A DNA stretch of 49,911 bases from a bacterium (GTDB lineage Bacteria > Patescibacteriota > Minisyncoccia > Minisyncoccales > PEYH01), in contig JAGHAC010000046.1 in assembly GCA_021161645.1 (NCBI GenBank), forward strand, positions 1 to 49,911, given 5' to 3'. Under the pieces are notes generated by a model. The model was not told where the DNA came from. It saw only the letters and a program-made list of their open reading frames with translations, and did not search any database. A program made the translations under genes and the position numbers. Below, in pieces: positions 11,693-35,824 of the stretch. Numbering within the stretch: the stretch's first letter is position 1; each line of letters opens with the position of its first letter.

Positions 11693-12163
11693 CTAGATCT
11701 TTTTGGGTTTTATTATTACTCTTCTTTCTGGTTCTTCCCCTACGCTTTCTGTGGCAACATCATTTCTTTTAGCTAATTCTAAATGAATGATTCTTCTTTG
11801 ATAAGCTGGCATTGGTTCCAGCTCTTTCTTTTTTTTGGAAAGAGTCACTTCGTCAGCCACAGAATTTGCTATCTCTCGAAGATAAGTATACTTCTTTTCT
11901 TTATATTCGTTAATGTCTAGATCAACAAAAAAATCTCCTTGGTTTTTCTTTTTAAGAATCTTTGAAAGAAGTTTTTGAATTGTATTAAGAACTATTCCAC
12001 CCTGCCCAATTAAAATCTTAGGTTCTTCCACTTGAATTCTGATGTGTAAAACCCCTTCTTCTAAAAAAACCTCTACTTTCTGAAGATCAAAACCCATTTT
12101 CTCAAAAAACTGACAAACAAGAGATTTTGTATTTTTAAAATTGACAGCGTCCTCCATATTCAA
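11693..12163 (-). CDS. jag: Jag/SpoIIIJ-associated KH + R3H RNA-binding protein
   Basis: KH GxxG motif (ILIGQGGIVLNTIQ) and R3H motif (YQRRIIHLEL). It sits downstream of yidC, as is typical. Confidence 0.85.
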   Translation of the reverse strand: MNMEDAVNFKNTKSLVCQFFEKMGFDLQKVEVFLEEGVLHIRIQVEEPKILIGQGGIVLNTIQKLLSKILKKKNQGDFFVDLDINEYKEKKYTYLREIANSVADEVTLSKKKKELEPMPAYQRRIIHLELAKRNDVATESVGEEPERRVIIKPKKI

Positions 12164-12858
12164 TTTTTAATTCTTCTTTTAACAATTTCTTGTTGAAGAA
12201 TAGCAAATAATCCACTTACAAGCAAGTAAAGAGCGACGGCTGAAGGTACTTTTAGGAGAACTATCACAATAAAAGCCGACAAAAAATAATTCATCATTAA
12301 CTGCTGATGTTTTTGCTGCTTATCTTTTGAAGACGATCTTACACTCATCCATTTTGTCTGAAGATACTGAGAAACGCCCACAAGTACTGCCAATAAAATT
12401 GACGGTTTAGCTAAATCTATGTTTAAAAAGATGGTATTTATTGTCTCTGGCTTGTGAACAAAACTGTAAAGATAAGTAAAATTTTCTGGGTTCAAGCCTC
12501 TCAAAAACAATCTATAAAGAGCGATAAGCACCGGAAATTGAATAAGAAGCAGCCAAAATCCTGAAAAGGGGTTAAACTTTTCTTTTTTATAAATCTCCAT
12601 CAGAGCTTTTGCCTGTTTTTCTCTATCGTACTTATGCTTCTCTTGGATTTCCTTAATTTTAGGTTGAATTTTTTGAAGGGCTATCTGCGATTTAATCACC
12701 TTTTCTTGAAAAGGATACAAAGCAGCTCTAATAAGTAGGGTTAAAATAATTATTGCCAAACCAAAACTATGACCAGGCAAATAAGTAGTTAAAAGAATTA
12801 AAAGATTAAAAAGCGGCTGGTAGAAGATTATATAAAAAATTTTTACAATACTATTCAT
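12160..12858 (-). CDS. yidC: YidC/Oxa1-family membrane protein insertase (short form)
   Basis: 232 aa polytopic protein in the conserved rnpA-yidC-jag order, with a 4 nt overlap to jag and an 8 nt overlap with rnpA. Confidence 0.85.
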   Translation of the reverse strand: MNSIVKIFYIIFYQPLFNLLILLTTYLPGHSFGLAIIILTLLIRAALYPFQEKVIKSQIALQKIQPKIKEIQEKHKYDREKQAKALMEIYKKEKFNPFSGFWLLLIQFPVLIALYRLFLRGLNPENFTYLYSFVHKPETINTIFLNIDLAKPSILLAVLVGVSQYLQTKWMSVRSSSKDKQQKHQQLMMNYFLSAFIVIVLLKVPSAVALYLLVSGLFAILQQEIVKRRIKN

Positions 12859-13201
12859 TTTGTTTGATAATTCCTGCTTTTTGAAAGATTGTTAGTATAA
12901 TTTCCTGTAGTTCCCAAAAATCATACTTTTCTGCTCCGGGTAAAGCGATTACCACAACATCATAACCCTGCTTAATGTGTAGCAGAATACTTCTTATCGC
13001 TTCTCTCAATTTCCTTTTTAATCTGTTTCTTGTCACTGCTCTGTTTGAAACTTTTCTAGAAACCACAAACCCAAATCGCAAACCAGAATCTTCTTTTTCA
13101 AGAATCTTAATAAAAATTTCTTTTTCTCTATATCCTTTTCCTTGACGAAAAACTAAGTTGAAATCCTTTTGTTTTTTGAGTCGGTTTTTGAAAGGTAACA
13201 T
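12851..13201 (-). CDS. rnpA: Ribonuclease P protein component
   Basis: 116 aa basic protein with KKQKDFNLVFRQGK near the N-terminus. It starts 1 nt after the rpmH stop. Confidence 0.85.
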   Translation of the reverse strand: MLPFKNRLKKQKDFNLVFRQGKGYREKEIFIKILEKEDSGLRFGFVVSRKVSNRAVTRNRLKRKLREAIRSILLHIKQGYDVVVIALPGAEKYDFWELQEIILTIFQKAGIIKQNE

Positions 13202-13336
13202 TTAAGGAATAAGTTTTTTTCTGCCCTTTTTCCGCCTTCTCTTTAACACTCTCTTGCCTCCTTTAGTTTTTGTTCTTTTTAGAAACCCATGTGTTTTCTT
13301 TTTCTTTCTTTTTTTACCTTTGTTTGTAATGCTCAT
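13202..13336 (-). CDS. rpmH: 50S ribosomal protein L34 (below the ORF-track length cutoff)
   Basis: Manual translation of the minus strand gives MSITNKGKKRKKKKTHGFLKRTKTKGGKRVLKRRRKKGRKKLIP*. This contains the L34 core THGF..R.KTKGG..VL.RRR.KGRK.L. Confidence 0.9.
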   Translation of the reverse strand: MSITNKGKKRKKKKTHGFLKRTKTKGGKRVLKRRRKKGRKKLIP

Positions 13337-13425
13337 ATGCTCAAATAAATTAAAACTAATAATTAGATTATATCATAATGACTTTAGTGGTCAAATCAAA
13401 AAGTTTTTCTCTAAAGATTTACAGA

Positions 13426-13445
13426 TTATCCACAACTTATTCACA
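13426..13445 (+). promoter_or_regulatory. Two tandem DnaA boxes upstream of dnaA
   Basis: TTATCCACA (13426-13434, perfect consensus) and TTATTCACA (13437-13445, one mismatch). Confidence 0.7.
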
Positions 13446-13467
13446 TAGGTGTTGTTTTTTCTTGATT

Positions 13468-13496
13468 TTGCGTTGTTTTCTGATAATCTCTATAAT
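13468..13496 (+). promoter_or_regulatory. Candidate dnaA promoter
   Basis: TTGCGT, a 17 nt spacer, then TATAAT (13491-13496), 29 nt upstream of the dnaA ATG. Confidence 0.5.
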
Positions 13497-13524
13497 ATAA
13501 GAGGGCAAATTAATACTGAACTAT

Positions 13525-14871
13525 ATGACAAAAGAAGAGCTCTGGCAATCTGTTCTTGCCCAAATCCAACTCAATGTTTCTCCAGCAAATTTTGCTACCT
13601 GGTTTAAAAATACAAAAATTGTAGGAGTAAACGGAAGCTCTGTAATTATAGGCACCCCAAATGCCTTTTCCAGAGAGTGGCTTGAAAAAAAATATGGCAA
13701 AACCATATTAAAAATTTTAAGAAACCTAGATACCCAAATTAAAAAAATAGAGTTCCAGGTAATTTCTCATAAGCCCCTTAAAAACTTTGCTCAAAAATCT
13801 GTAGAATATCCTGACCAACTTAAATTTGAAGAATTTTATTTAGACAAAAAAACTAACCTTAATCCAAAATATACTTTTGAGAACTTTGTTGTAGGTCCGT
13901 TTAACGAACTTCCTCACGCTGCTGCTTGGGCTGTAAGCGAAAATCCGGGATCTGTATATAATCCTCTTTTTATTTACGGAGGCGTAGGACTAGGAAAAAC
14001 TCATCTTATTCAAGCGCTTGGTAACAAAGTATTAGAAAACTTCCCAAACAAAAAAGTACGCTATGTATCTTCTGAAAGATTTACTTCCGAGATTATTAAC
14101 TCTATCAAAAATCAAACAATAGACCGCTTCAAAAGATCCTATCATCAAATCGATCTTTTAATCATAGACGACATTCAATTTCTCTCAGGCAAAGAAAAAA
14201 CCCAAGAAGAATTCTTTCATATTTTTAATTCACTCTATGAGGCGAATAAACAGATTATTCTCTCTTCTGATCGTCCACCAAAGGCAATTTCCGCTCTAGA
14301 AGAAAGATTAAGATCAAGATTTGAGGGAGGAATGATTGCAGATATCAGCATTCCGGATTTTGAGTCGCGAGTCGCTATTTTGAAACAAAAAATGCAGGAA
14401 AAAAACATCTTTTTTGACGACCAAATCTTAGAATATATTGCCGAGAATATCCAAAGCAATATAAGAGAACTTGAGGGAGCGCTTAACAGACTCATTATTT
14501 ATCAAAAAATCAATAACCAAACCGTAGATCTGGAAACTGCTAAAAAGTTGCTTAAAAGAATCATAAAACCTCAAGCTAAAAGGGTGAGCTTTCAAAAAGT
14601 AATAGATATTGTAGCTGAATTTTACAACCTCAAATCCAAAGATCTCTTTCAGAAAACAAGAAAACAAGAAATTGTAAGACCAAGACAAATAGCAATGTAT
14701 TTATTAAGAGAAGAAGTTAAACTCGCCTTTCCAACTATTGGGAAAAAGTTTGGAGGAAAAGACCATACCACTGCCATCTACGCCTACGAAAAAATCGCTA
14801 AAGAAATTGAAGAGAATGAAAGTTTCTCAGAGGAAATAAACATCATCAAAGAAAGAATTTATACCTTATAA
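13525..14871 (+). CDS. dnaA: Chromosomal replication initiator DnaA
   Basis: Walker A GGVGLGKTHL, Walker B LLIIDDIQFL, and the C-terminal DNA-binding signature RPRQIAMYLLRE...GGKDHTTAIYAYEKI. Confidence 0.95.
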   Translation: MTKEELWQSVLAQIQLNVSPANFATWFKNTKIVGVNGSSVIIGTPNAFSREWLEKKYGKTILKILRNLDTQIKKIEFQVISHKPLKNFAQKSVEYPDQLKFEEFYLDKKTNLNPKYTFENFVVGPFNELPHAAAWAVSENPGSVYNPLFIYGGVGLGKTHLIQALGNKVLENFPNKKVRYVSSERFTSEIINSIKNQTIDRFKRSYHQIDLLIIDDIQFLSGKEKTQEEFFHIFNSLYEANKQIILSSDRPPKAISALEERLRSRFEGGMIADISIPDFESRVAILKQKMQEKNIFFDDQILEYIAENIQSNIRELEGALNRLIIYQKINNQTVDLETAKKLLKRIIKPQAKRVSFQKVIDIVAEFYNLKSKDLFQKTRKQEIVRPRQIAMYLLREEVKLAFPTIGKKFGGKDHTTAIYAYEKIAKEIEENESFSEEINIIKERIYTL

Positions 14872-15101
14872 AGTGTTAAAAAGAAGTGGAAAAATTAAGA
14901 AGAATGTCTGAAGAAAACGTGAAGAAATTTTGTCTAATATTTTTTCATATTTTCTTCCACAATAATACCCAATTTTTTCCTGAAATTTCCACAAAGTTTT
15001 CCTACCTAATTTAATTGATTCTATCTTATTTTTACACAAAAACAATCAGAAAACATAAAATCTAATAGTAGTAATAATCTAATTAAAATTAAATTAAAAT
15101 T
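14872..15101. promoter_or_regulatory. Candidate oriC segment (dnaA-dnaN intergenic region)
   Basis: 230 bp non-coding region with three TTCCACA-core box-like motifs: GTGGAAAA at 14886-14893 (inverted), TTCTTCCACA at 14952-14961 and ATTTCCACA at 14985-14993. A nearly pure A/T stretch at ~15040-15100 could serve as an unwinding element. Confidence 0.55.
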
Positions 15102-16235
15102 ATGGCTATAGAAGTTTTGCGAGAAAATTTAAAAAAAGGTCTTCAGATTGTAGAAAGAATCACAGGAAAAAATTTAGTTCTTCCAATTTTAAACAATGTT
15201 TATTTAAAAACAGAAAAAAATTCGTTAAGGCTTGCGACTACGGATTTAGAAACAGCAATCTATCATTGGATATTAGCAAAGACGGATAAAGAGCAAGAAA
15301 TTACAGTGCCTGTAAAATTATTTTCGAATCTTTTATCTTTTTTGTCAGATCAAAAAATCAATCTAGAAATAAAAGATAAAATTTTAATATTAAGCGGAGA
15401 AAACTATAAAACAGAAATAAAAGGATTAGATCCAAAAGATTTTCCTATTATTCCTAAAATTGAAAAGAATGAGTGGATCGAGATTGATCCTTTATCGTTT
15501 ACAACAAGTATTTCTCAGGTAATTGATTTTTGTAGCACAACTCAAGTGAGGCCAGAACTTACTGGTGTTTATTTTTTCTTTTCGGAAAAAAATGTAAAGA
15601 TTGTTGCCACAGATAGTTTTAGGTTGGCGGAGAAAACCCTTAATTATCAAACTTCTCAAGGAAATCTTAAAGAAGAGAAGGCTTTTATTCTTCCAAGAAG
15701 TGCTGCTAGGGAAATTACAGGAATTTTCAATGAATCGGGGCAAAAAATTAAGATATTTTTTACTTCCAATCAGGTTTTGGTAGAGAATTATTTCTTTGAA
15801 TCAGAAACGCCACAGACCCAATTAATTTCGAGGTTAATAGAAGGAGAGTTTCCTAATTATCAAGATATAATTCCCAAGGAGTCGAAGACAGAAATTTTAG
15901 CAGATAAGTCTCAATTTTTGAATTATCTAAAGGCGGCAAGCATTTTTGCTGGAAGGGGTAATGAAGTAAATTTGAAGGTTGATGCTAAAGATAAGAGAAT
16001 AGAGATTTTAACCGAGAATACGGATGTGGGTTCTACTCAATTTACTCTTCCGGCAAAGATTAATGGAGAAAAAACGAAGATATGCTTCAATTACAAGTTT
16101 TTACTTGAAGGAATTTCTAAAATTAAAGGAGATGAAATATATATAGGATTAAACGGTGAAGATGGTCCGGGGCTCATTAAATCACAAGAAGATTCTAGTT
16201 TTCTCTATATCCTAATGCCGATTAAACCTACATAA
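15102..16235 (+). CDS. dnaN: DNA polymerase III beta sliding clamp
   Basis: 377 aa directly after dnaA. The N-terminal pattern (L..GL..V.RI....LVLPILNNVYL) and the length fit DnaN. Confidence 0.9.
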   Translation: MAIEVLRENLKKGLQIVERITGKNLVLPILNNVYLKTEKNSLRLATTDLETAIYHWILAKTDKEQEITVPVKLFSNLLSFLSDQKINLEIKDKILILSGENYKTEIKGLDPKDFPIIPKIEKNEWIEIDPLSFTTSISQVIDFCSTTQVRPELTGVYFFFSEKNVKIVATDSFRLAEKTLNYQTSQGNLKEEKAFILPRSAAREITGIFNESGQKIKIFFTSNQVLVENYFFESETPQTQLISRLIEGEFPNYQDIIPKESKTEILADKSQFLNYLKAASIFAGRGNEVNLKVDAKDKRIEILTENTDVGSTQFTLPAKINGEKTKICFNYKFLLEGISKIKGDEIYIGLNGEDGPGLIKSQEDSSFLYILMPIKPT

Positions 16236-18189: not shown

Positions 18190-18206
18190 ATTTATATATT
18201 ATAAAC

Positions 18207-18237
18207 AAAACCCCCTCGCTTCAAGCGAGGGGGTTTT
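18207..18237 (-). terminator. Intrinsic terminator
   Basis: AAAA-CCCCCTCGC-ttcaa-GCGAGGGGG-TTTT is a perfect 9 bp GC-rich stem flanked by A and T runs. It lies 11 nt downstream of the stop of the acidic ORF on the minus strand. Confidence 0.8.
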
Positions 18238-18247
18238 AAGAAGATAA

Positions 18248-18454
18248 TTAAGCTTCTTCTTTTCCTTCTTCCCATTCATCTGACTCATCTGAACCTTCGT
18301 CTTCTTCTAGCTCTTCTTCACCTTCTTCTTCCCAGTTTTCTCCTGTTTCTTCTTCTCCTTCTGTTTCTTCAGTGCCTTCTTCGGTTATTTCTTCGTCAGA
18401 TTCCTCTTCTAATTCTTCCTGATTGGTCAGGAATAAATCTGCTTTATATTCCAT
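18248..18454 (-). CDS. Hyper-acidic 68 aa protein (32 Glu + 5 Asp)
   Basis: ATG-initiated ORF followed by a strong terminator. After the short N-terminus MEYKADLFLTNQ the sequence is nearly all E/D/G/T/S with two W. No clear Shine-Dalgarno sequence, so coding status is uncertain. Confidence 0.5.
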   Translation of the reverse strand: MEYKADLFLTNQEELEEESDEEITEEGTEETEGEEETGENWEEEGEEELEEDEGSDESDEWEEGKEEA

Positions 18455-18531
18455 AAATTTAAAAGCTTATTTTTTAATTTAAAACGACCTTTGTGGTCTA
18501 TAAAGTAATTATATTTTTTGAAAAGAGCCTG

Positions 18532-19032
18532 TCAAGCACTTTTTTCACATTTTTGATTTTTAATTATTGTTGAGCAACATACAGCAATGGCTATGGCGTC
18601 AGCAGCATCATCTGGCTTCGGGATTTCCTTCAGCTGAAACATTTCTTGTATCATTCTTTGGATTTGTTTTTTTTGAGCGCGACCATAACCTACAATGTTT
18701 AGTTTAACTTGAAGAGGGCTAAACTCATAAACTGGAATTTTGTTTTTTGCCGCCCAAAATAAAATTACTCCCTTAGTTTGACTTACTTTTATAGCTGTTT
18801 TTGAATTTTTAAAGAAAAAAACACTTTCTATTGCTAGAATATCGGGTTTGTTTTTTTTAACTATCTGTTTCAGTTTCTTATATGTTTGATTAAGCCTTTG
18901 AGCGTCTGAGAAATTCGGGGTAGTATAGATGCAACCATATTCGATTAAGCTTAATTTTCCTGTTTTTTTACTGAATCTTATCAGTCCGTAGCCAGTAGTT
19001 GCTGTCCCAGGATCTATGCCCAAGATAATCAT
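18532..19032 (-). CDS. ruvC: Holliday junction resolvase RuvC
   Basis: MIILGIDPGTATTGYGLI N-terminus plus DAADAIAIA near the C-terminus. Confidence 0.9.
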   Translation of the reverse strand: MIILGIDPGTATTGYGLIRFSKKTGKLSLIEYGCIYTTPNFSDAQRLNQTYKKLKQIVKKNKPDILAIESVFFFKNSKTAIKVSQTKGVILFWAAKNKIPVYEFSPLQVKLNIVGYGRAQKKQIQRMIQEMFQLKEIPKPDDAADAIAIAVCCSTIIKNQKCEKSA

Positions 19033-20509: not shown

Positions 20510-21517
20510 TTAGAAAGACATTTGGCTATTTTTAGAAGAAATTCCCAAATGGGTGTAAGCAAGGTCGGTTGCTATTCTGCCCCGTTGGGTTCTTTTTAAA
20601 AGCCCTAACTGAAGGAGGTAAGGCTCATATATTTCTAAGATAGTGTCAATTTCTTCTCCTACTGTTGCTGCTAATGCTTGAATTCCTACGGGCCCGCCAT
20701 TAAACTTTTGGATTATCGCCCTTAAAATTTTTCGATCTGCTTCTTCTAATCCCAGTTTATCAATTCCCATAGCCTCAAACCCTAAAATGGCTATTTGTTT
20801 GTCAATAATACCATTTCCTTCAATCTGGGCGAAATCGCGAAGCCTTTTTAAAAGTCTGTTTGCTACTCGAGGCGTAAAACGACATCTTTCCGAAATGAAT
20901 TCTACGGCTTTCTCAGTTATTTCTACCCCGAGAATTTTGGCAGAACGTCCGATGATTTTTTTGATATCTTCTTTTGTGTAGAAATTTAATTGAAAAGTGG
21001 CTCCAAAACGACTTCTTAAAGGAGAAGATAAAAGAGCTATTCTTGTTGTTGCTCCTATAAGAGTAAATTTTGGGAGCTTGAGTTCAATTGTTCTTGCCAT
21101 AACTCCTCTGCCGGCCATAAGGTGCAATTTAAAATCTTCCATTGCAGGATAGATCAACTCTTCACATGTTTTACTTAGTCTATGAATTTCATCTATAAAA
21201 AGAATGTCTCCTTCTGATAGGTTAGTAAGAAGAGCTGCCAAATCTCCGGGTTTTTCAATCATAGGACCGGCAGTAATTCTGATATTTGTCTTTAGCTCTT
21301 TAGCAATAAGATAAGCAAGCGTTGTTTTACCTAATCCAGGAGATCCATAGAAGAGGAGATGATCTGGATTTTCCTTTCTTTTTTTTGCCGCCTCAATAAT
21401 AACTTTCAGGTTTTTTTTAACCCGTTCCTGTCCAATATACTCTTCCCATTTTTGAGGCCGTAAAACAGCATCTATTGTCTCCTCGGTTGCGCGTGGGGTT
21501 TCTCCCTTGACAGACAT
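20510..21517 (-). CDS. ruvB: Holliday junction branch-migration ATPase RuvB
   Basis: LRPQKWEEYIGQERVK, Walker A GSPGLGKTTLA and Walker B ILFIDEIHRL. Confidence 0.95.
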   Translation of the reverse strand: MSVKGETPRATEETIDAVLRPQKWEEYIGQERVKKNLKVIIEAAKKRKENPDHLLFYGSPGLGKTTLAYLIAKELKTNIRITAGPMIEKPGDLAALLTNLSEGDILFIDEIHRLSKTCEELIYPAMEDFKLHLMAGRGVMARTIELKLPKFTLIGATTRIALLSSPLRSRFGATFQLNFYTKEDIKKIIGRSAKILGVEITEKAVEFISERCRFTPRVANRLLKRLRDFAQIEGNGIIDKQIAILGFEAMGIDKLGLEEADRKILRAIIQKFNGGPVGIQALAATVGEEIDTILEIYEPYLLQLGLLKRTQRGRIATDLAYTHLGISSKNSQMSF

Positions 21518-21535
21518 TTTGATGTTTGCTATAAT
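21507..21535 (+). promoter_or_regulatory. Consensus sigma70-type promoter on the plus strand
   Basis: TTGACA (21507-21512), exactly 17 nt of spacer, then TATAAT (21530-21535), preceded by TGc (extended -10). The -35 overlaps the first codons of ruvB on the other strand. Confidence 0.65.
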
Positions 21536-21540
21536 ATGTT

Positions 21541-21657
21541 AAGTCCCTGACTGGAAGAGGAATTTTTCTTAGCTACTGGGTAGCCTGGCTCTGGCTGGGC
21601 TATGCCTCGGAAAAATTCTGGTTTTGGTTGCTTTCCAAGATTTCCAGTCAGGGATTT
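21541..21657 (+). ncRNA. Candidate ~117 nt structured small RNA of unknown class
   Basis: It starts 6-8 nt after the -10. A 16 bp closing stem pairs 21541-21556 with 21642-21657, and a 9 bp inner stem pairs 21560-21568 with 21610-21618. The apical GC-rich hairpin (21581-21588/21595-21602) has two G-U pairs that form only on the plus strand. A T-rich tail (TTTTAAATTTTT) follows. Both flanking genes are on the minus strand. Confidence 0.45.
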
Positions 21658-21672
21658 TAAATTTTTAAGTTG

Positions 21673-22971
21673 TTATCTTTCCATGGCTACTCTTTTTACC
21701 TCTTCTATGGTGGTAATTTTCTCTATAACCTTTATCAAACCATCTTTATACATAGAAACCATTCCTCTTTTCTCCGCCAGTTTTCTCATCTCGGAGACAG
21801 ATGGTTTTTTAAGAATCAGGTCTTCCATTTCAGAATCTACTAAAAAAGCTTCAAAAATGCCCACTCTTCCTTTATAACCAGTAAAGTTGCAGTATTTGCA
21901 ACCTTTTGCTTCCATAACTTCTAAATCCTGAGAAATTTTAGGAATTTTAATATCTTTGGGTAAGTTAGAGAATTCTGATTTTAACATTTGGAATTCTTCA
22001 GGACTAATTTTTCTAGGGAGAGCACATTTTGGACAAATTTTTCTTACCAATCTTTGGGCAATAACCATATTAATTGCCGGTGCAATATTAATAGGATTTG
22101 CTCCCAAAGATGCCAGTCTTGGAATAGCACCCGGAGCATCGTTTGTATGAAGAGTAGAAAAAACAAGATGTCCGGTAAGAGCAGCCTGTAGAGCAATTTC
22201 AGCGGTTTCTTTATCTCTGATTTCTCCTACTAGAATAACATCCGGATCTTGACGAACAATGGACCTAAGGCCATTTGCAAAATCGTATCCTTTTTCTGGG
22301 TGAACTTCTGTTTGCGAGATTCCTTCTAATCTGTACTCAATTGGATCTTCGATAGTAATAATTTTAATCTCAGGCTTTTGAAGGAAGCGCAGGAAAGCAT
22401 ACAAAGTAGTAGTTTTTCCTGAACCAGTAGGACCAGTCACAATAATCATTCCGTTTGGTTTCTGGATTTCATTTTTAAATAATTCTAGAAGATCTTTTCT
22501 TAACCCCAATTCTTCAATGTTTTTTAAACTTTGAGGGTTGAGAATTCTCATTACGATAGATTCTCCATAATCTGCAGGCAGGACAGAAGTTCTAATTTCT
22601 ATTTCTAATTGAGGTAGAGCAACGGAAAAACTTCCATCTTGGGCCCTATCGTGAATGTTTAGTTTTAGTCCCGCCAACAATTTTATTCGCGAAAGCAAAA
22701 GATGGTATGTTTCTACTCGAAAAGAGAAAACATCTTGTAGCATTCCGTCTAACCGGATTCTTAAACGAACACTTTCTTCCTGTGGTTCTAGATGAATGTC
22801 TGAAGCAAATAAATGAATTGATCCAGTCAAGATCAAGCCGAGAAGATCACTAATATCTTTATCAAGAAATTTTTCTATTTCTTTGGCAAAATCAGAAACG
22901 CTTTCGATTTCTTTTTGAGCCAGTTTCTGAATTTCTGGAGGTATAACAATTTTGTCTGTTATTGTTACCAT
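21673..22971 (-). CDS. Short GspE/PilB-family secretion ATPase (lacks the long N-terminal domains)
   Basis: Walker A GPTGSGKTTT, Asp box EDPIEY, Walker B DPDVILVGEIRD, His box LTGHLVFSTLHTN and the tetracysteine CPKC...CKYC. I prefer the ATG at 22971; the ORF track uses the TTG at 22980. Confidence 0.85.
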   Translation of the reverse strand: MVTITDKIVIPPEIQKLAQKEIESVSDFAKEIEKFLDKDISDLLGLILTGSIHLFASDIHLEPQEESVRLRIRLDGMLQDVFSFRVETYHLLLSRIKLLAGLKLNIHDRAQDGSFSVALPQLEIEIRTSVLPADYGESIVMRILNPQSLKNIEELGLRKDLLELFKNEIQKPNGMIIVTGPTGSGKTTTLYAFLRFLQKPEIKIITIEDPIEYRLEGISQTEVHPEKGYDFANGLRSIVRQDPDVILVGEIRDKETAEIALQAALTGHLVFSTLHTNDAPGAIPRLASLGANPINIAPAINMVIAQRLVRKICPKCALPRKISPEEFQMLKSEFSNLPKDIKIPKISQDLEVMEAKGCKYCNFTGYKGRVGIFEAFLVDSEMEDLILKKPSVSEMRKLAEKRGMVSMYKDGLIKVIEKITTIEEVKRVAMER

Positions 22972-22976
22972 AGAAT

Positions 22977-24059
22977 TCAACAGCTTGAAATTTCTTGTAT
23001 TAGTTTCTCCTTTTTTTCTTTCGGTATTTGGAAGAGAAGGGCTTTTCCATTGGTTTGCCCTCCAAATTTAGAAGCAAGTCTAACCAATGTTTCTTTTTCT
23101 GGAAAATAAAAAACCCCTCCAAGAGATGATAAGTCAGCATGGGACTCCCATAAAATTAGAAGAGAGGGGAAATTGAATACTTGAACGCGAAGCATTTTAA
23201 TAAGATAAATAATTTTTTGACGATCTATATCAGCGAATTCCTTTTTGGTTAAGATCACTAAAGGAATATTGTTTTCGCCTATTACTTTAATTCTTTTTAA
23301 TACTTTCTCAGAAAAAGTCAAAACTTCGGGATTAGGATTTCTCAAAAAGAGCCTTAGAATATTTTTTATTTCTAAAGCATTTCTTTGGGCAAGGGTAAAA
23401 ACCTGTAATATTTTTTCGGGATCTTTTTTGTAATAGTCAATTATTCCTACAAAAAGATTTTCTAGCAAAATTTTATCTTCTGTTTTTGGCAAAAGATTTA
23501 TGGCCAGTTGATGAACTATTTCCGAAAGAGCCATATCCTTTTTTATCCAATTTATTTGCCCAAAATTAAAATTGTCTTTTTGGTTATCTATATTCAAAAT
23601 GAAACCCTCAAAAAATGTTTTAAAGTTTTTTTCATAATATTCTCCTAACTCTTCTAAATTTCTTACTCCAAGAGAAATAATTAAATCAACATTTAAATTT
23701 AGAGGATCGTCTTCTAAAGAAAAAAGACGAATGTTGTTAGAAGAGGAGGAGTTTTTTGATAAGGTAATTAGCAATCGGAAAGATTCGGAGCTTTTTTGAT
23801 AATACAGTTCAGAGATATTGTTTGGAGGTGAGATTTCCAGAATATAGGTATCAAGGTTATCGATAGGGTGAGGCAAAAGAGAGAATTTATTCTTGATTGT
23901 TTCCGGATAAATATTTACTTTTTTGCCAATCCTTTTTAGAGTGTAAAAAAGGCAAAAAAACGCAGATATTAAATCTAAAGTTAATTTACCACTTTTGGTA
24001 ACTAAAAGCACAGACTGAGAGTTGATTATTTTTTGTCTAATCTCTTGAAGTTCGTCCAT
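22977..24059 (-). CDS. Degenerate DHH/DHHA1-like protein (NrnA-like layout, catalytic motifs substituted)
   Basis: Its length and order resemble NrnA-type phosphoesterases. ILNIDNQ sits where IDHH is expected, and LASKFGGQTNGKALLF sits where the DHHA1 GGGH motif is expected. I prefer the ATG at 24059; the TTG at 24098 gives the longest ORF. The family call is from memory-based alignment only. Confidence 0.35.
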   Translation of the reverse strand: MDELQEIRQKIINSQSVLLVTKSGKLTLDLISAFFCLFYTLKRIGKKVNIYPETIKNKFSLLPHPIDNLDTYILEISPPNNISELYYQKSSESFRLLITLSKNSSSSNNIRLFSLEDDPLNLNVDLIISLGVRNLEELGEYYEKNFKTFFEGFILNIDNQKDNFNFGQINWIKKDMALSEIVHQLAINLLPKTEDKILLENLFVGIIDYYKKDPEKILQVFTLAQRNALEIKNILRLFLRNPNPEVLTFSEKVLKRIKVIGENNIPLVILTKKEFADIDRQKIIYLIKMLRVQVFNFPSLLILWESHADLSSLGGVFYFPEKETLVRLASKFGGQTNGKALLFQIPKEKKEKLIQEISSC

Positions 24060-24112
24060 AATCTTTTTCAATTTAATTCCAAAGATTCCAAAAGTCAATT
24101 TTGTGAGATTTA

Positions 24113-24613
24113 ATGAAATCTAAAGCAAATAACAAGAAAAAATTATTGTGTGCTTCTCTTTCAGCACGAGAAACCCGCAAAATGGGTAAAATTTTTGCCC
24201 GCAAAGTTTTAAATTGTGGTTTCTTAAACAAAAATCTAAGAAAACAGGCAATAGTCATAGCTTTGGAGGGAGATTTAGGCGGCGGGAAAACAACTTTTGC
24301 TCAAGGATTTGCTAAGGGACTGGGCATTGAAAGAAAAATTTTAAGCCCTACATTTGTGATTATAAAAAGATATCCAATTCCAGCAGTAAAGAGTAGCTAT
24401 TTCTGCCACATAGATTGTTATCGAATTAAATCTTCAAAAGATCTTAAAAGCATAGGAATAAAAAGATTAATAAAAGACACAAGAAATATTATTATTATTG
24501 AATGGGCTGAAAAAATTAGAGAAATACTTCCCGAAGACACCATTTGGATCCGTTTTGAGTTTGTAGATTTAAAGAAGAGAAGAATTTATAGTTCTTGGTG
24601 CGGGAAAAATTAA
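24113..24613 (+). CDS. tsaE: tRNA t6A37 biosynthesis ATPase TsaE
   Basis: ALEGDLGGGKTTFAQGFAKGLGI...SPTFVIIKRY, the P-loop plus SPTF signature of the TsaE/YjeE family. Confidence 0.85.
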   Translation: MKSKANNKKKLLCASLSARETRKMGKIFARKVLNCGFLNKNLRKQAIVIALEGDLGGGKTTFAQGFAKGLGIERKILSPTFVIIKRYPIPAVKSSYFCHIDCYRIKSSKDLKSIGIKRLIKDTRNIIIIEWAEKIREILPEDTIWIRFEFVDLKKRRIYSSWCGKN

Positions 24614-24624
24614 TATTCTCTTTT

Positions 24625-25590
24625 ATGGAAAAGAAGAAAATAATCATTATAGATGGCAATGCGATAGTCCATCGTGCTTATCATGCGTTACCAAAACTTA
24701 CCACAAAATCAGGCAAGGTTGTTAATGCTGTTTATGGCTTTCTTTTAATCTTGTGGAGGGTATTTAAGGACTTTAAACCGGATTTTGCGATTGTTGCTTT
24801 TGATTTCCCCGCTCCGACCTTCAGAGATAAAATTTATAAAGAATACAAAGCTAAAAGAAAAAAGGCGCCTGACGAACTGTATGAGCAAATACCAGAGGTA
24901 AAAAAAGTTCTTAGGGCTTTCGGAATTAAATTTTTTGAGCTTAAGGGTTATGAGGCAGACGATCTTATAGGCACAATTGTAAAATTGGCAGAAAAAAAAC
25001 AGATTTTCCCCAAAATAGAGGTAATTATTACAACAGGAGACTTAGATGCGCTTCAGTTGATCGATAATCAGACAAAAGTTCTTCTTCTGAAAAGAGGTAT
25101 TAAAGAGGCGGTTTTATACGATAAAGAAGAAGTTAAAAAAAGATATCAGATAGAACCTGAGCAATTAATTGATTTTAAGGCTCTGAGGGGGGATCCTTCA
25201 GACAATATTCCAGGGATTTCTGGCATAGGAGAAAAAACAGCTATTAATTTAGTTAAGCAGTTTGGCTCTTTAGAAAATCTTTACAAAGCAATAGAAGAGA
25301 ATCGCGATATTACAAAAAAAATATCTCCGAGGGTAAGGGAGCAGTTAATGCGCTCAAAAGAAGAGGCTTTTTTTTCGAGAAAACTCGTTGAGATTAGAAA
25401 AGACGCTCCTATAAATTTTAATTTGCAAGAATGTAGAATTGATAAAGAGAATTTATCTAAGGCAAAGAAGATCTTAGAGGAATTTGAGTTTTTTAGCTTA
25501 ATCAAAAGGCTTCCAGAGATTTTTAATTCTAAAACAGAAGAAGAGCAATTATCTAATAGTCAAGAATCAATCCAACAAAAACTTGTCTAG
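24625..25590 (+). CDS. 5'-3' exonuclease / flap endonuclease (stand-alone Pol I N-terminal domain)
   Basis: IIIDGNAIVHRAYHA, GYEADD, GDLDALQL and the H3TH motif GDPSDNIPGISGIGEKTA. I prefer the ATG at 24625 over the ORF-track start at 24595. Confidence 0.9.
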   Translation: MEKKKIIIIDGNAIVHRAYHALPKLTTKSGKVVNAVYGFLLILWRVFKDFKPDFAIVAFDFPAPTFRDKIYKEYKAKRKKAPDELYEQIPEVKKVLRAFGIKFFELKGYEADDLIGTIVKLAEKKQIFPKIEVIITTGDLDALQLIDNQTKVLLLKRGIKEAVLYDKEEVKKRYQIEPEQLIDFKALRGDPSDNIPGISGIGEKTAINLVKQFGSLENLYKAIEENRDITKKISPRVREQLMRSKEEAFFSRKLVEIRKDAPINFNLQECRIDKENLSKAKKILEEFEFFSLIKRLPEIFNSKTEEEQLSNSQESIQQKLV

Positions 25591-25633
25591 CAATTTATTT
25601 TAAAAAACAAAAACATTTGATATTATTAGAGTA

Positions 25634-26317
25634 ATGAAAGCAATACAAAGAACAAAACAAGGAAGTATCTTTTTTAGAATCTTTTACGGTGTGCTAATAA
25701 TTTCGGTTTTTTCAAACCTAATTTTTGCATACATTATTCATCGCGGATATGAGACAGCAATAGATCCTTTGAGAGAAATGGTTTCAATTGAAACGTTTAG
25801 TAATATAGAGGCAAACATCTTTAATACATGGATTGTGTCAGCCTCTACTTTTATTTTTGTGGTACTAATGACAATGTTTTTTGCAGTAATCTTTACTCAA
25901 AGAATCGTTTCTCCTATTCGAGAATTAGTTAAGGTGGTTAAAAGAGCTGCCGCCGGCGATTTAAATATAAGAGTGGGGGTGAAAGGGAACGACGAATTAG
26001 CTCAGCTTGGGAAAGAGTTTAATTTTATGATAGAGCAACTCAAAAAAACCAAAGATCAGCTAGAGGAGGAAAAAAAGGTTCTGGAAATCAAGGTGAGAGC
26101 AAGAACCAGAGAGCTTGAGGAGTTGGCAGAAACTTTAGATGCTCAAGTAAAAGAAAGAACAAAGGAATTGCAGGAAAGGGTGAACCAGCTAGAGAGATTT
26201 CATAAGCTTACAATAGGAAGGGAAATGAAAATGATAGAATTAAAGAAGAAAATCCGCCAGCTTGAAAAAGAACTAGAGAGGTGCAGGTCAAAAAATTTAA
26301 ACAACTCAAAGCATTAA
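25634..26317 (+). CDS. Membrane HAMP-domain protein with coiled-coil tail and no output domain
   Basis: Two TM helices flank a ~30 aa outside loop. A HAMP domain follows (IVSPIRELVKVVKRAAAGDLNIRV...DELAQLGKEFNFMIEQL), then ~90 aa of heptad-rich K/E sequence. No kinase or MCP domain is present. Confidence 0.75.
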   Translation: MKAIQRTKQGSIFFRIFYGVLIISVFSNLIFAYIIHRGYETAIDPLREMVSIETFSNIEANIFNTWIVSASTFIFVVLMTMFFAVIFTQRIVSPIRELVKVVKRAAAGDLNIRVGVKGNDELAQLGKEFNFMIEQLKKTKDQLEEEKKVLEIKVRARTRELEELAETLDAQVKERTKELQERVNQLERFHKLTIGREMKMIELKKKIRQLEKELERCRSKNLNNSKH

Positions 26318-32873: not shown

Positions 32874-34619
32874 ATGAAGGTTGAAGATCAACAACTTAAG
32901 CTTTTTCTTCTAGACACAAAGCTTGTCAAAGAAGAGGATTTAAAAAAGGCAGAAGAGAAAGCAAAGAAAACAGGTAAAAAACTTGAAGATGTTTTAATTT
33001 TGGAAAAATTAATTTCTCCCGAAGACCTAATTCGTCTAAAAGCATATATTCTAGGAATTCCTTTTATCAGCTTAAAAGATGAGATTATTCCCAAAGAAAT
33101 TTTAGAAATCATTCCGGAGCCTATCGCCAGAGCTCACAATATTATTGCTTTTCGGAAAAAGGGCAGAAATCTGGAAGTGGCCATGCTTGATCCAGAGGAT
33201 CTTCAGACAATTGACTTTATAAAAAAGAAAACAAATCTGAAAATTTTACCCCGGCTTACTGACCCAGGAAGTGTCAAAAATGCTCTTGCTCAGTATAAAA
33301 AAACTCTTAGCGCAGAATTCGGCAGGATTATTCAGAAAGAGGCACAAGGTATTAAAACAATCGGAACAAAAACAGAAGAACAGGACAATTTAGAAAAAAT
33401 TGCCCAGGAGGTTCCTATAATGAAGATAGTTGACACTTTGCTTCAGCATGCAGTTTTAGATCGTGCCTCTGATATTCATATAGAGCCGACAGAGAAAGAG
33501 CTTTTAATAAGATATAGAATAGACGGAATTTTAAGAGAAGTGATGACTCTTCCTAAAAACATTGCTCCGGGTATTGTAGCAAGGATTAAGGTGCTGTCAG
33601 ATCTAAAACTGGACGAACACAGGTTGCCTCAAGACGGAAGATTTAGATTTGAAAGCGGGGGAAATAAATTTTCTGTGAGGGTATCAGTTCTCCCTGTAAT
33701 CAACGGCGAAAAAGTAGTAATGAGAATTCTTCCAGAGGAAGCAAAGGGTTATAACTTGGAAACACTGGGATTAAGAGGTAGAGACCTAGAGGAGGTTCAA
33801 ATGGCTTTGCGAAAACCTACGGGAATGATTTTGGTCACTGGTCCTACCGGCTCAGGGAAAACTACTACTTTGTATTCGATGATAGAAATTCTTAATACAC
33901 CCGAGGTGAATATTTCTACTATTGAAGACCCGGTAGAATATAGAATGCCCCGCGTTAATCAGACCCAAGTTAAACCCGAAATCGGATTGACTTTTGCAAA
34001 CGGTTTAAGATCTCTTTTAAGGCAGGACCCTGATATTATCATGGTCGGAGAGATAAGAGATAACGAGACAGCTTCTTTAGCAGTAAATGCTGCCCTTACC
34101 GGACATCTTGTTCTTTCCACTCTTCATACCAATAGCGCTGCCGGAGCAATCCCAAGATTGATAGACATGAAAGTAGAACCCTTCTTAATTGCCTCAACTC
34201 TTAATATAGTTATTGCTCAAAGGCTGGTAAGAAGGCTTTGCGAAGAAAAAGAAGAGTATTGCCTGGATAGCGCAGCTGTAAAAAGAATTGCAAAGTATTG
34301 TGATTTAGAAAGAATTAAAAAGATCTTAAAAGAAGAAGGATTGATAAAGGGGCACAATAAAACAATCCGCGATATTAAATTTTACAAACCAAAACCAACA
34401 AAAAGTTGTGAGGAGGGATACAAAGGCAGAATAGGCATCTTTGAAGTTTTGTCGGTTACGGAGACAATAAAGAAATTAATTACCCAGGAAGTGAGCGATG
34501 AAGAAATTCAAAAACAAGCATTAAAGGAGGGAATGAGAACAATGGTAGAAGATGGATTTGTAAAGGCGGCTCAGGGAATTACTTCTATAGAAGAGGTCTT
34601 AAGAGTAATAATTGAGTAA
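32874..34619 (+). CDS. pilB: Type IV pilus assembly ATPase PilB (GspE family, full length)
   Basis: It has an N-terminal GSPII-type domain, Walker A GPTGSGKTTT, EDPVEY, DPDIIMVGEIRD and LTGHLVLSTLHTN. Confidence 0.9.
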   Translation: MKVEDQQLKLFLLDTKLVKEEDLKKAEEKAKKTGKKLEDVLILEKLISPEDLIRLKAYILGIPFISLKDEIIPKEILEIIPEPIARAHNIIAFRKKGRNLEVAMLDPEDLQTIDFIKKKTNLKILPRLTDPGSVKNALAQYKKTLSAEFGRIIQKEAQGIKTIGTKTEEQDNLEKIAQEVPIMKIVDTLLQHAVLDRASDIHIEPTEKELLIRYRIDGILREVMTLPKNIAPGIVARIKVLSDLKLDEHRLPQDGRFRFESGGNKFSVRVSVLPVINGEKVVMRILPEEAKGYNLETLGLRGRDLEEVQMALRKPTGMILVTGPTGSGKTTTLYSMIEILNTPEVNISTIEDPVEYRMPRVNQTQVKPEIGLTFANGLRSLLRQDPDIIMVGEIRDNETASLAVNAALTGHLVLSTLHTNSAAGAIPRLIDMKVEPFLIASTLNIVIAQRLVRRLCEEKEEYCLDSAAVKRIAKYCDLERIKKILKEEGLIKGHNKTIRDIKFYKPKPTKSCEEGYKGRIGIFEVLSVTETIKKLITQEVSDEEIQKQALKEGMRTMVEDGFVKAAQGITSIEEVLRVIIE

Positions 34620-34621
34620 TT

Positions 34622-35824
34622 ATGGCTATTTATCGTTATTTGGCAAAAAACAAAGAAGGAGAAACGATTTCTGGAAGAAAAGAGGCGGTTAGTATAAGAG
34701 ATTTGGCTCAGAAACTTTCGAATCAAGGTTTTTTATTAATTTCAGCTTCTTTAGATAGAAAAAAGCAAGGTTTTTTAAATTTAAAGAGGGTTTCTTTAAA
34801 AGAAAAAATGATGGCTATCAGGAATTTACAAGTGATGCTTGCGGCTGGTGTTTCACTTCCAAAATCTTTAGATGTGTTAACCTCCCAGAGCAGAAACAAA
34901 TATTTTCAAAAAATCCTTCAGGAAATTAAAGAAAAAATTATTCAAGGCAACTCTTTTTCAGAAGCTCTTGCCGAATATCCAAGAGTCTTCCCCAAAATTT
35001 TCTCAAGTATGATAAAAGTAGGAGAAAAAACCGGAAGCATGCCAGATGTTTTAAATACGCTTGCCTCTCACTTGGAAAAAGATTTCAGATTGAGGTCAAA
35101 AGTGAAGGGAGCTCTAATGTATCCTATGATAGTAGTAATTGCTATGATTTTGATCGGAGTTGTGATGTTGGTTTTAGTTGTTCCAAAACTAAGTGAAGCG
35201 TTTAAGTCTTTAAACATAGAACTCCCTAAAACTACAAGATTAATAATGAATTTAGGGAATTATTTCAAGGATTATTGGTACCTGTTGTTGGCTGTTCCGC
35301 TTTTGATCGCTGGCTTTATTATTCTTCTAAAAAGAAGCCCCAAATTTAAAAATAGTTGGGATAGATTTGTTTTTAAAATACCATTTGTTTCGAGTTTAAT
35401 TAAAAAGATTAATACTGCATATAGTGCTAGGACTTTGAGCTCCCTGATTTCTGGGGGCGTATCTATCGTAGAGGCTTTACAAATTACTTCGGAGACAGTC
35501 TCCAATGAAAAATTTAGGGAGGTTTTAATAAGAGCCTCGAAAGAAGTAAAGAAAGGGGAAAAACTTTCCTCGATAATTGCTCAATTCCCAGAGGTTTATC
35601 CTCCGGTATTTGTTCAAATGCTAGAGGTGGGAGAAGAGACAGGGCAAACCTCCAAAGTTTTACTAAGATTGGCGGAATTTTTTGATGAAGAAGTAACGAG
35701 TGTAACGCAGAATTTAGCTTCTATTATTGAACCAATTCTTCTACTTGTTATTGGAGGAATTATTGCTCTGTTTGCGGTTTCAATGATAAAACCAATCTAT
35801 TCAATGATTGGCACAATGCACTAA
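34622..35824 (+). CDS. pilC: Type IV pilus platform protein PilC (GspF family)
   Basis: 400 aa with a duplicated GspF-type domain architecture and three TM helices, directly after pilB. Confidence 0.9.
   Translation: MAIYRYLAKNKEGETISGRKEAVSIRDLAQKLSNQGFLLISASLDRKKQGFLNLKRVSLKEKMMAIRNLQVMLAAGVSLPKSLDVLTSQSRNKYFQKILQEIKEKIIQGNSFSEALAEYPRVFPKIFSSMIKVGEKTGSMPDVLNTLASHLEKDFRLRSKVKGALMYPMIVVIAMILIGVVMLVLVVPKLSEAFKSLNIELPKTTRLIMNLGNYFKDYWYLLLAVPLLIAGFIILLKRSPKFKNSWDRFVFKIPFVSSLIKKINTAYSARTLSSLISGGVSIVEALQITSETVSNEKFREVLIRASKEVKKGEKLSSIIAQFPEVYPPVFVQMLEVGEETGQTSKVLLRLAEFFDEEVTSVTQNLASIIEPILLLVIGGIIALFAVSMIKPIYSMIGTMH

Follow-up and report, generated by a model that had tools for sequence, protein, structure and literature searches.

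A structured small RNA family encoded beside ruvB in Parcubacteria-type Patescibacteria, predicted by comparative sequence analysis

Among the structured RNAs that bacteria transcribe from genes of their own, 6S RNA (ssrS; RF00013, 6S-Flavo), the small signal recognition particle (SRP, 4.5S) RNA (RF00169) and the bacterial Y RNA/YrlA come closest to the element considered here, together with raiA, OLE, ROOL and GOLLD, orphan non-coding RNAs (ncRNAs) that are lineage-restricted, covary strongly, carry their own promoter and terminator and have no assigned function. Patescibacteria, which are ultra-small, account for a large part of bacterial diversity; their genomes of about 1 Mb contain hardly any spare non-coding DNA, and only a very small number are cultivable. 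Here we have analysed a 49,911-nucleotide stretch of patescibacterial DNA (contig JAGHAC010000046.1 of assembly GCA_021161645.1, hereafter the window), in which a 155-bp gap (21518-21672), running from the ruvB start to the stop of a short PilB-like ATPase gene, encodes on the plus strand a predicted RNA of about 117-126 nt (21541 to ~21666) that folds as a closed three-way junction of helices P1, P2 and P3 and ends in a U-rich tail. As judged by sequence comparison, this is a genuine gene for a structured RNA, predicted to be transcribed independently and belonging to a family outside Rfam 15 in Parcubacteria/Paceibacteria-type Patescibacteria; that the family is a real one of structured small RNAs (sRNAs) we regard as very probable.

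The new RNA shares with 6S RNA a stand-alone and presumably abundant transcript, a strong sigma-70 promoter and a long closing stem formed by the 5' and 3' ends, as well as an expected action through protein binding and not base-pairing. The two differ in shape: 6S RNA is a rod with a large central bubble, whereas here a covarying three- or four-way junction is found, and because the arms of this junction are real helices and its 5' side comprises only 2 nt in the form found in the window, the RNA is not 6S-like in shape. It is also 117-170 nt long with conserved sequence in the middle of P2, and the Rfam 6S models do not match it. The small SRP RNA resembles it in a length of about 115 nt, closed ends and a conserved irregular helix as the likely protein site; unlike SRP RNA, the new RNA is branched, has no conserved GNRA tetraloop and shows neither the symmetric nor the asymmetric loops of domain IV, its P2 loop varies freely with no AGCA-type motif seen, and the SRP covariance models give no match. 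In Y RNA/YrlA, too, a long stem from the 5' and 3' ends bears a branched module, but no rsr (Ro) gene was seen in our locus, neither a Ro-binding bulged helix nor tRNA-like T/D arms were recognised in the RNA, and the corresponding covariance models again fail to match. The traits listed above for raiA, OLE, ROOL and GOLLD all recur here; however, architecture and sequence differ, OLE, ROOL and GOLLD are much larger, and the present RNA occurs in Patescibacteria at one fixed locus. Finally, divergent or overlapping promoter pairs and bidirectional terminators offer a parallel, in that the promoter lies over the start of ruvB and P1 sits between an A-run and a U-run, but arrangements of that kind do not need a conserved multi-helix RNA body.

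The evidence for a family comes from homologues collected through RuvB, at 80 genome loci and 80 metagenome loci. Searches with nhmmer and a motif regular expression uncovered a shared core, CUUAG...GGA...UCCUCGG, upstream of ruvB at several Patescibacteria loci, and a strong promoter accompanies it each time, as do a U-run and a long closing stem. A covariance model built from a single seed (model R1, locus L082) recovered 25 members, and in their alignment (A4) 92.5% of cells fall in standard pairs, against 73.0 ± 0.8% after shuffling. Compensatory changes are present in 41 of the 49 pairs, none of 500 shuffles reaches any of the five measures used, and sliding the 3' partners by 1-3 columns brings pairing down to 35-59%. 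All 17 P1 pairs show compensatory changes, as do 17 of 24 in helices 2 and 3 (P2) and 7 of 8 in helix 4 (P3). The rebuilt model (R2) yielded about 40 matches, every one just upstream of ruvB and on the opposite strand, and none at all in 62 ruvB loci from other phyla (407 kb). In total, some 50 Patescibacteria/Parcubacteria-type loci carry the RNA between the pilB-like gene and ruvB, as a single copy in the window and one per locus elsewhere, while RuvB itself is only 55-69% identical across them. Two further results do not depend on the covariance model: single-sequence minimum free energy (MFE) folds of ten members agree on the architecture, and RNAalifold, run on a structure-blind MAFFT alignment, recovers P1, P2a, P2b and P3. 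In the window, positions 21538-21672 of the plus strand fold to an MFE of -57.2 kcal/mol (z = -6.33), a stability matched by none of 200 shuffles.

At more distant loci, including those labelled Moranbacteria (taxon labels are given as written in public records), the RNA reaches about 160 nt or more. An extra hairpin, P1a, stands between P1 and P2 in these forms and makes the junction four-way, with roughly symmetrical 28-nt arms on either side, and some also have a 5' leader hairpin. A third model (R3, seeded with locus L123) gathered 22 four-way members into alignment A7, where 93.9% of cells are paired compared with 74.4% after shuffling and 42 of 52 pairs show compensatory changes, a count that none of 500 shuffles attains. 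All seven helices are supported, P1a at 6 of 6 pairs and P3 (helix 7) at 9 of 9, and sequence is conserved in inner P1 (UGYAGGCA / UGCCURCA), at the base of P2a (GGGAAC), in the U-tract and in the P2 core. The three-way RNA of the window appears to be a reduced version of this larger form. Some four-way members (L110 at ~1196-1330 and L105 at ~2802-2940, both minus strand, along with L115 and L031) have a leader of 70-130 nt between promoter and P1, which in L110 and L105 folds into a long hairpin of its own, and primary transcripts in these long-leader lineages may be processed.

Transcription would begin at a sigma-70 promoter (Table 1) that agrees with the consensus at 12 of 12 positions and carries the extended -10 (TG) as well. 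An earlier sequence-only reading of this DNA had named it the best promoter match in the window, and fairly so, since just two 12/12 promoters exist in the whole 49.9 kb: the other (18535-18508, minus strand) lacks TG and has a spacer of 16 nt, so that the combination of a 17-nt spacer with TG is found at the RNA promoter only. The predicted transcription start (~21541-21542) lies about 7 nt past the -10, exactly at the foot of P1, in agreement with that reading, which had also correctly described the 155-bp gap and its two minus-strand neighbours. Across 44 homologous loci, the -35 is a perfect TTGACA and the -10 fits TAnnnT in every case, with the 17-nt spacer kept at 42 and the TG extension at 33. 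In the other direction, no conserved ruvB-sense promoter was found within the gap or the RNA gene, where the best candidates score 7-9 of 12 and differ in position between loci. Between ruvB and the RNA promoter, one locus (L007, 2600-2720, minus strand) has a long inverted repeat with GGGGCTTGAC in both arms (…ggggcttgacccccacacctaatcagga … tcctgattaggtgtgggggcttgaca…), which may be a duplicated promoter region.

At the other end of the RNA, the 3' strand of P1 and the U-rich tail that follows it (21642-21666) are predicted to form an intrinsic terminator and the 3' end of the transcript. A run of at least four T within 12 nt after P1 is present in 20 of 27 homologues, and it lies on the same strand as the promoter found at all 44 loci, the arrangement of an independent sRNA gene. 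P1 itself is in truth 21-26 bp long in most members, with an A-run on its 5' side. That the fold belongs to the plus strand follows from the excess of G-U/U-G cells (223) over A-C/C-A cells (44) among the modelled pairs. Furthermore, 24 of 27 members fold more stably in sense than in antisense, and R2 scores the sense strand of confident members (E < 1e-3, the E-values being rough after a shortened calibration) at 36-116 bits against 21-31 bits for the reverse strand. A combination of perfect promoter strength, the same locus across deep divergence and dozens of compensatory substitutions indicates strong selection on this gene.

Within the RNA, the three-way and four-way forms have in common the conserved P2 core, 5' Y-N-A-G-(2-7 nt bulge)-Y-G-G-R / 3' Y-C-C-U-C-R-R. 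The apical loops of P2 are variable and appear as interchangeable stable tetraloops (UUCG, UCCG, GAGA, GAAA), with UCUG, UGCG and others also seen; two members have insertions at this loop, and P3 loops differ across the family. Conserved loop-loop or bulge-loop pseudoknots were looked for in the bulges, P3 loops and junction strands, and nothing consistent turned up. Most of the fold proposed by the sequence-only reading stands. Its 16-bp outer stem is P1, its 9-bp stem (21560-21568 with 21610-21618) is present and extends to 11 bp through terminal G-U pairs, and the tail it placed after the stem is there and rich in U. The apical hairpin is there as well, but it contains three G-U pairs and not the two claimed. 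The proposal that 21571-21602 can form two mutually exclusive hairpins has to be given up: both depend on the bulge CUACU, which homologues replace with 2-7 nt of unrelated sequence, and because the bulge is not kept, the alternative hairpins look like chance.

Table 1. Positions of the RNA, its parts, its promoter and the two adjoining genes in the window.
Feature	Positions	Strand	Remarks
Sigma-70 promoter	21507-21535	plus	-35 TTGACA 21507-21512; 17-nt spacer; TG 21527-21528; -10 TATAAT 21530-21535
P1	21541-21556 with 21642-21657	plus	16 bp; 5' strand AAGUCCCUGACUGGAA
P2 (long conserved hairpin)	21559-21619	plus	MFE fold; comparative support
P2a	21559-21569 with 21609-21619	plus	11 bp, AU-rich
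U x C mismatch in P2	21570 / 21608	plus	
Conserved A-U and G-C pairs in P2	21571-21572 with 21606-21607	plus	
5' bulge CUACU in P2	21573-21577	plus	5 nt
Conserved G-C pair in P2	21578 with 21605	plus	
G x G mismatch in P2	21579 / 21604	plus	
P2b	21580-21589 with 21594-21603	plus	10 bp
P2 apical loop UCUG	21590-21593	plus	
P3 (short hairpin)	21621-21627 with 21635-21641	plus	loop UUGCUUU
U-rich tail TTTTAAATTTTT / UUUUAAAUUUUU	21655-21666	plus	3' strand of P1 (21642-21657) runs into the tail
ruvB	20510-21517	minus	Pfam/NCBIfam: RuvB_N, AAA_lid_4, RuvB_C; divergent from the RNA gene
Short T2SSE/PilB/GspE-like ATPase	21673-22980	minus	Pfam and NCBIfam; convergent neighbour of the RNA gene

Comparison with described families supports the earlier suggestion that the RNA matches neither SRP RNA, 6S RNA and transfer-messenger RNA (tmRNA) nor any riboswitch. 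Rfam 15 (4227 models, including 6S, SRP, tmRNA, RNase P, Y RNA-like, riboswitch and ribozyme models) detects only transfer RNAs (tRNAs), located elsewhere, when the whole window is searched at the gathering score, and even at E <= 10 the region 21450-21720 returns nothing on either strand beyond sub-threshold noise, such as IS128 at 16 bits against a threshold of 80. A search of both strands of 16 homologous loci likewise gave no consistent match at the RNA. We found no description of it in the literature on ncRNAs of Patescibacteria, Parcubacteria and the candidate phyla radiation, which is not proof that it is unpublished. The sequence-only reading had gone on to suggest that the consensus promoter may drive a plus-strand sRNA not yet described, and had named conservation and covariation in relatives among the checks; the roughly 50 homologues, the compensatory changes in both alignments, the strand bias and the promoter kept at every locus now lend this suggestion strong support.

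Several other identities were considered and set aside. ARAGORN finds no tRNA or tmRNA gene in 21000-22200. A ribosomal RNA fragment is rejected on the failure of the large-subunit, small-subunit and 5S models to match at any threshold and on helix proportions unlike those of 5S. The single copy in the window and the one copy per locus speak against a miniature inverted-repeat transposable element or other repeat or mobile element, and a pattern scan of viral contigs produced 10 chance matches, none of them matching the covariance model, which sets aside a phage element. No cluster of DnaA boxes that would point to a replication origin lies at the RNA. The only open reading frame (ORF), 21602-21877, begins at an AUG within CUAUGCC where other members have CUAUUCC or CUGUUCC, and since this ORF is not conserved, the RNA is not coding. 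Nor is it a riboswitch or other cis-acting leader, because the downstream gene is convergent at all loci; moreover, the U-tail directly follows P1. A retron ncRNA finds no counterpart in the neighbourhood, which consists of RuvB, an LTD-domain protein, YebC, RuvC, the PilB-like ATPase and a 373-aa protein, with no reverse transcriptase.

The position of the gene is conserved as well. At essentially every locus the order is the 373-aa protein gene, the PilB-like ATPase gene, the RNA on the opposite strand, ruvB, the LTD-domain protein gene (not in all cases) and yebC, and neither in the window nor at the homologous loci does a gene on the same strand follow the RNA. In the window, the ruvB start codon (ATG, minus strand, 21515-21517) lies within the spacer of the RNA promoter, and the ATPase stop codon comes 6 nt past the U-tail. 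Across the homologous loci the ruvB ATG often falls inside the promoter spacer and at most of them lies within or beside the promoter; the distance from the 5' end of the RNA to the ruvB start is 23-150 nt at most loci and the separation reaches 150-500 nt in some four-way members. The ATPase found in the same position at essentially all RNA-bearing loci is 40-63% identical.

Taken as a whole, these features would fit an abundant, nuclease-resistant, protein-binding RNA that acts in trans. The consensus extended -10 promoter would start transcription at ~21541, the transcript would fold as the closed three-way junction (or, in distant relatives, as the four-way junction with P1a), and the long P1 stem with its U-tract would end it. 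Recognition would then take place at the irregular helix in the middle of P2, with its N x C mismatch, A-U and G-C pairs, 2-7 nt 5' bulge and GG/CC, and the other helices, with their UNCG or GNRA tetraloop caps, would provide a scaffold. It is possible that the locus is held fixed by physical overlap, given that the ruvB start codon lies in or beside the promoter, and P1 with its A-run and U-run would resemble a bidirectional terminator for the pilB-like gene. Three observations lead us towards a trans-acting, protein-binding RNA with its site in the irregular P2 helix: what is conserved is a distorted helix and no single-stranded seed, the loops at the periphery form structural caps, and there is no downstream gene to regulate. 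Even so, we hold this role to be evenly balanced between right and wrong. More tentatively, and with doubt prevailing, the RNA could be the RNA subunit or protein decoy of an unrecognised ribonucleoprotein spread across Parcubacteria-type Patescibacteria, housekeeping-grade and with a standing like that of 6S, SRP or Y RNA; given the neighbouring genes, the partner or pathway of such a particle might be related to DNA uptake and recombination. We know of no earlier ncRNA class specific to the candidate phyla radiation, and if the ribonucleoprotein were real, this would be the first. In either case, the RNA presents a testable entry point to RNA-based regulation or ribonucleoprotein biology in Patescibacteria, and the two covariance models, for the three-way and four-way forms, are ready for use in annotation.

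Several points weigh against a trans-acting, protein-binding role or against the comparative case beneath it. No known protein-binding motif was recognised in P2, and no partner protein was identified. A position held so strictly beside ruvB would be unusual for a purely trans-acting RNA and would fit a local role equally well. The perfect P1 duplex of 21-26 bp is a possible substrate of RNase III, and the primary transcript may then not be the mature form. Every homologue was found by way of ruvB, and the collection thus leaves room for copies elsewhere in these genomes. Lastly, alignments made with covariance models are biased towards the modelled structure, a bias that the independent folds offset only in part.

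The local role just mentioned is the main rival, and we judge it rather unlikely. The element would be a locus-bound cis element that sits between the pilB-like gene and ruvB as an insulator of transcription or an antisense device. P1 with its A-run and U-run would terminate the sRNA one way and pilB transcripts the other, the very strong promoter over the ruvB start would fire head-on against read-through, and expression of ruvB-yebC-ruvC would be set by promoter competition or collision, or else the sRNA would pair with read-through RNA. Such a device would account for the location of the RNA between the two genes, on the opposite strand, at every locus found, for the ruvB ATG in or beside its promoter at most loci, for the lack of a conserved ruvB-sense promoter in the gap, and for the two runs flanking P1. 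However, the conserved P2 motif, the covariation of P3 and P1a and the multi-way junction are all more than a terminator or insulator requires; the G-U bias shows selection on the fold of the sRNA itself; and the RNA is conserved at several loci where 150-500 nt separate it from ruvB and the two therefore do not overlap. Another candidate is a ligand sensor or ribozyme, whose tertiary pocket would be made by the junction and P2 core, both conserved in sequence. The conserved nucleotides of the four-way form cluster round the junction (inner P1, GGGAAC and the U-tract), and the architecture is as elaborate as that of many riboswitch aptamers. We nonetheless consider this improbable: a sensor would have no downstream gene to regulate, P1 (16-26 bp) is far too long and stable for switching, the peripheral loops are UNCG-type caps and not tertiary-contact loops, no ribozyme or riboswitch model matches, and P1a is wholly lost in three-way forms.

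Of the housekeeping RNAs, 6S RNA is the one that most often escapes recognition in divergent phyla, and a highly divergent 6S-type RNA that binds RNA polymerase would have P1 as its closing stem, P2 as its internal stem, and P1a and P3 formed from the strands of the bubble. This would be in keeping with a stand-alone RNA that has a promoter of maximal strength and a long stem closing its 5' and 3' ends, and with four-way forms of ~160 nt whose 28-nt arms at the junction are nearly symmetrical. We see only a slim chance of it, in that P3 and P1a are genuine covarying helices that leave no bubble, the 2-nt 5' junction strand of the window form leaves no template strand, sequence is conserved in mid-P2 where 6S RNAs are unconserved, and the Rfam 6S models fail even at E <= 10. 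It is also conceivable, although very improbable, that the structure is one of the minus strand, either an intercistronic element between pilB and ruvB or the 5' leader of ruvB, with the plus-strand promoter being incidental. The minus strand does fold better than shuffles (-40.7 kcal/mol, z = -5.3), and transcription of ruvB must cross or leave the gap; against this, the G-U to A-C ratio and the more stable sense folds both favour the plus strand, covariance-model scores are about 60 bits lower in reverse, and only the plus strand has a conserved promoter and U-tail.

Beyond the RNA gene, several features of the neighbourhood may merit note. The 373-aa ORF (22977-24098, minus strand) and the start of the pilB-like gene share 4 nt. 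At least 15 loci with the RNA keep this ORF upstream of the pilB-like gene, at 25-30% identity and as part of a conserved cluster; considered as a candidate partner, it has no sequence match in Pfam, NCBIfam or the PDB. At 32874-35824, a PilC/T2SSF protein comes after a second PilB, which is full-length at 581 aa and has an MshEN domain; this suggests that the canonical type IV pilus cluster is located there and that the short PilB-like ATPase beside the RNA is a separate paralogue (44% identity).

Further away, a chromosomal origin region spans 11693-16235 and comprises jag (R3H domain, 11693-12163, minus strand), yidC (12160-12858, minus strand), dnaA (13525-14871) and dnaN (15102-16235), with a 667-bp gap that holds two adjacent DnaA boxes (13426-13445); the likely oriC is about 8 kb from the sRNA gene. 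The GC skew changes from negative to strongly positive across ~22000-26000, with a maximum of +0.34 at 26-28 kb, near the point where gene orientation diverges (24098 / 24113) and not at the dnaA-proximal origin region, and this shift may be due to transcription or coding-strand bias.

The second 12/12 promoter of the window drives a 68-aa hyper-acidic ORF (18248-18454, minus strand), about half of whose residues are Glu or Asp. It ends at a very strong 15-bp terminator (18238-18206), and Rfam has no match across 18206-18535. For the predicted product, a DNA mimic is one possibility and a small acidic protein expressed at a high level another.

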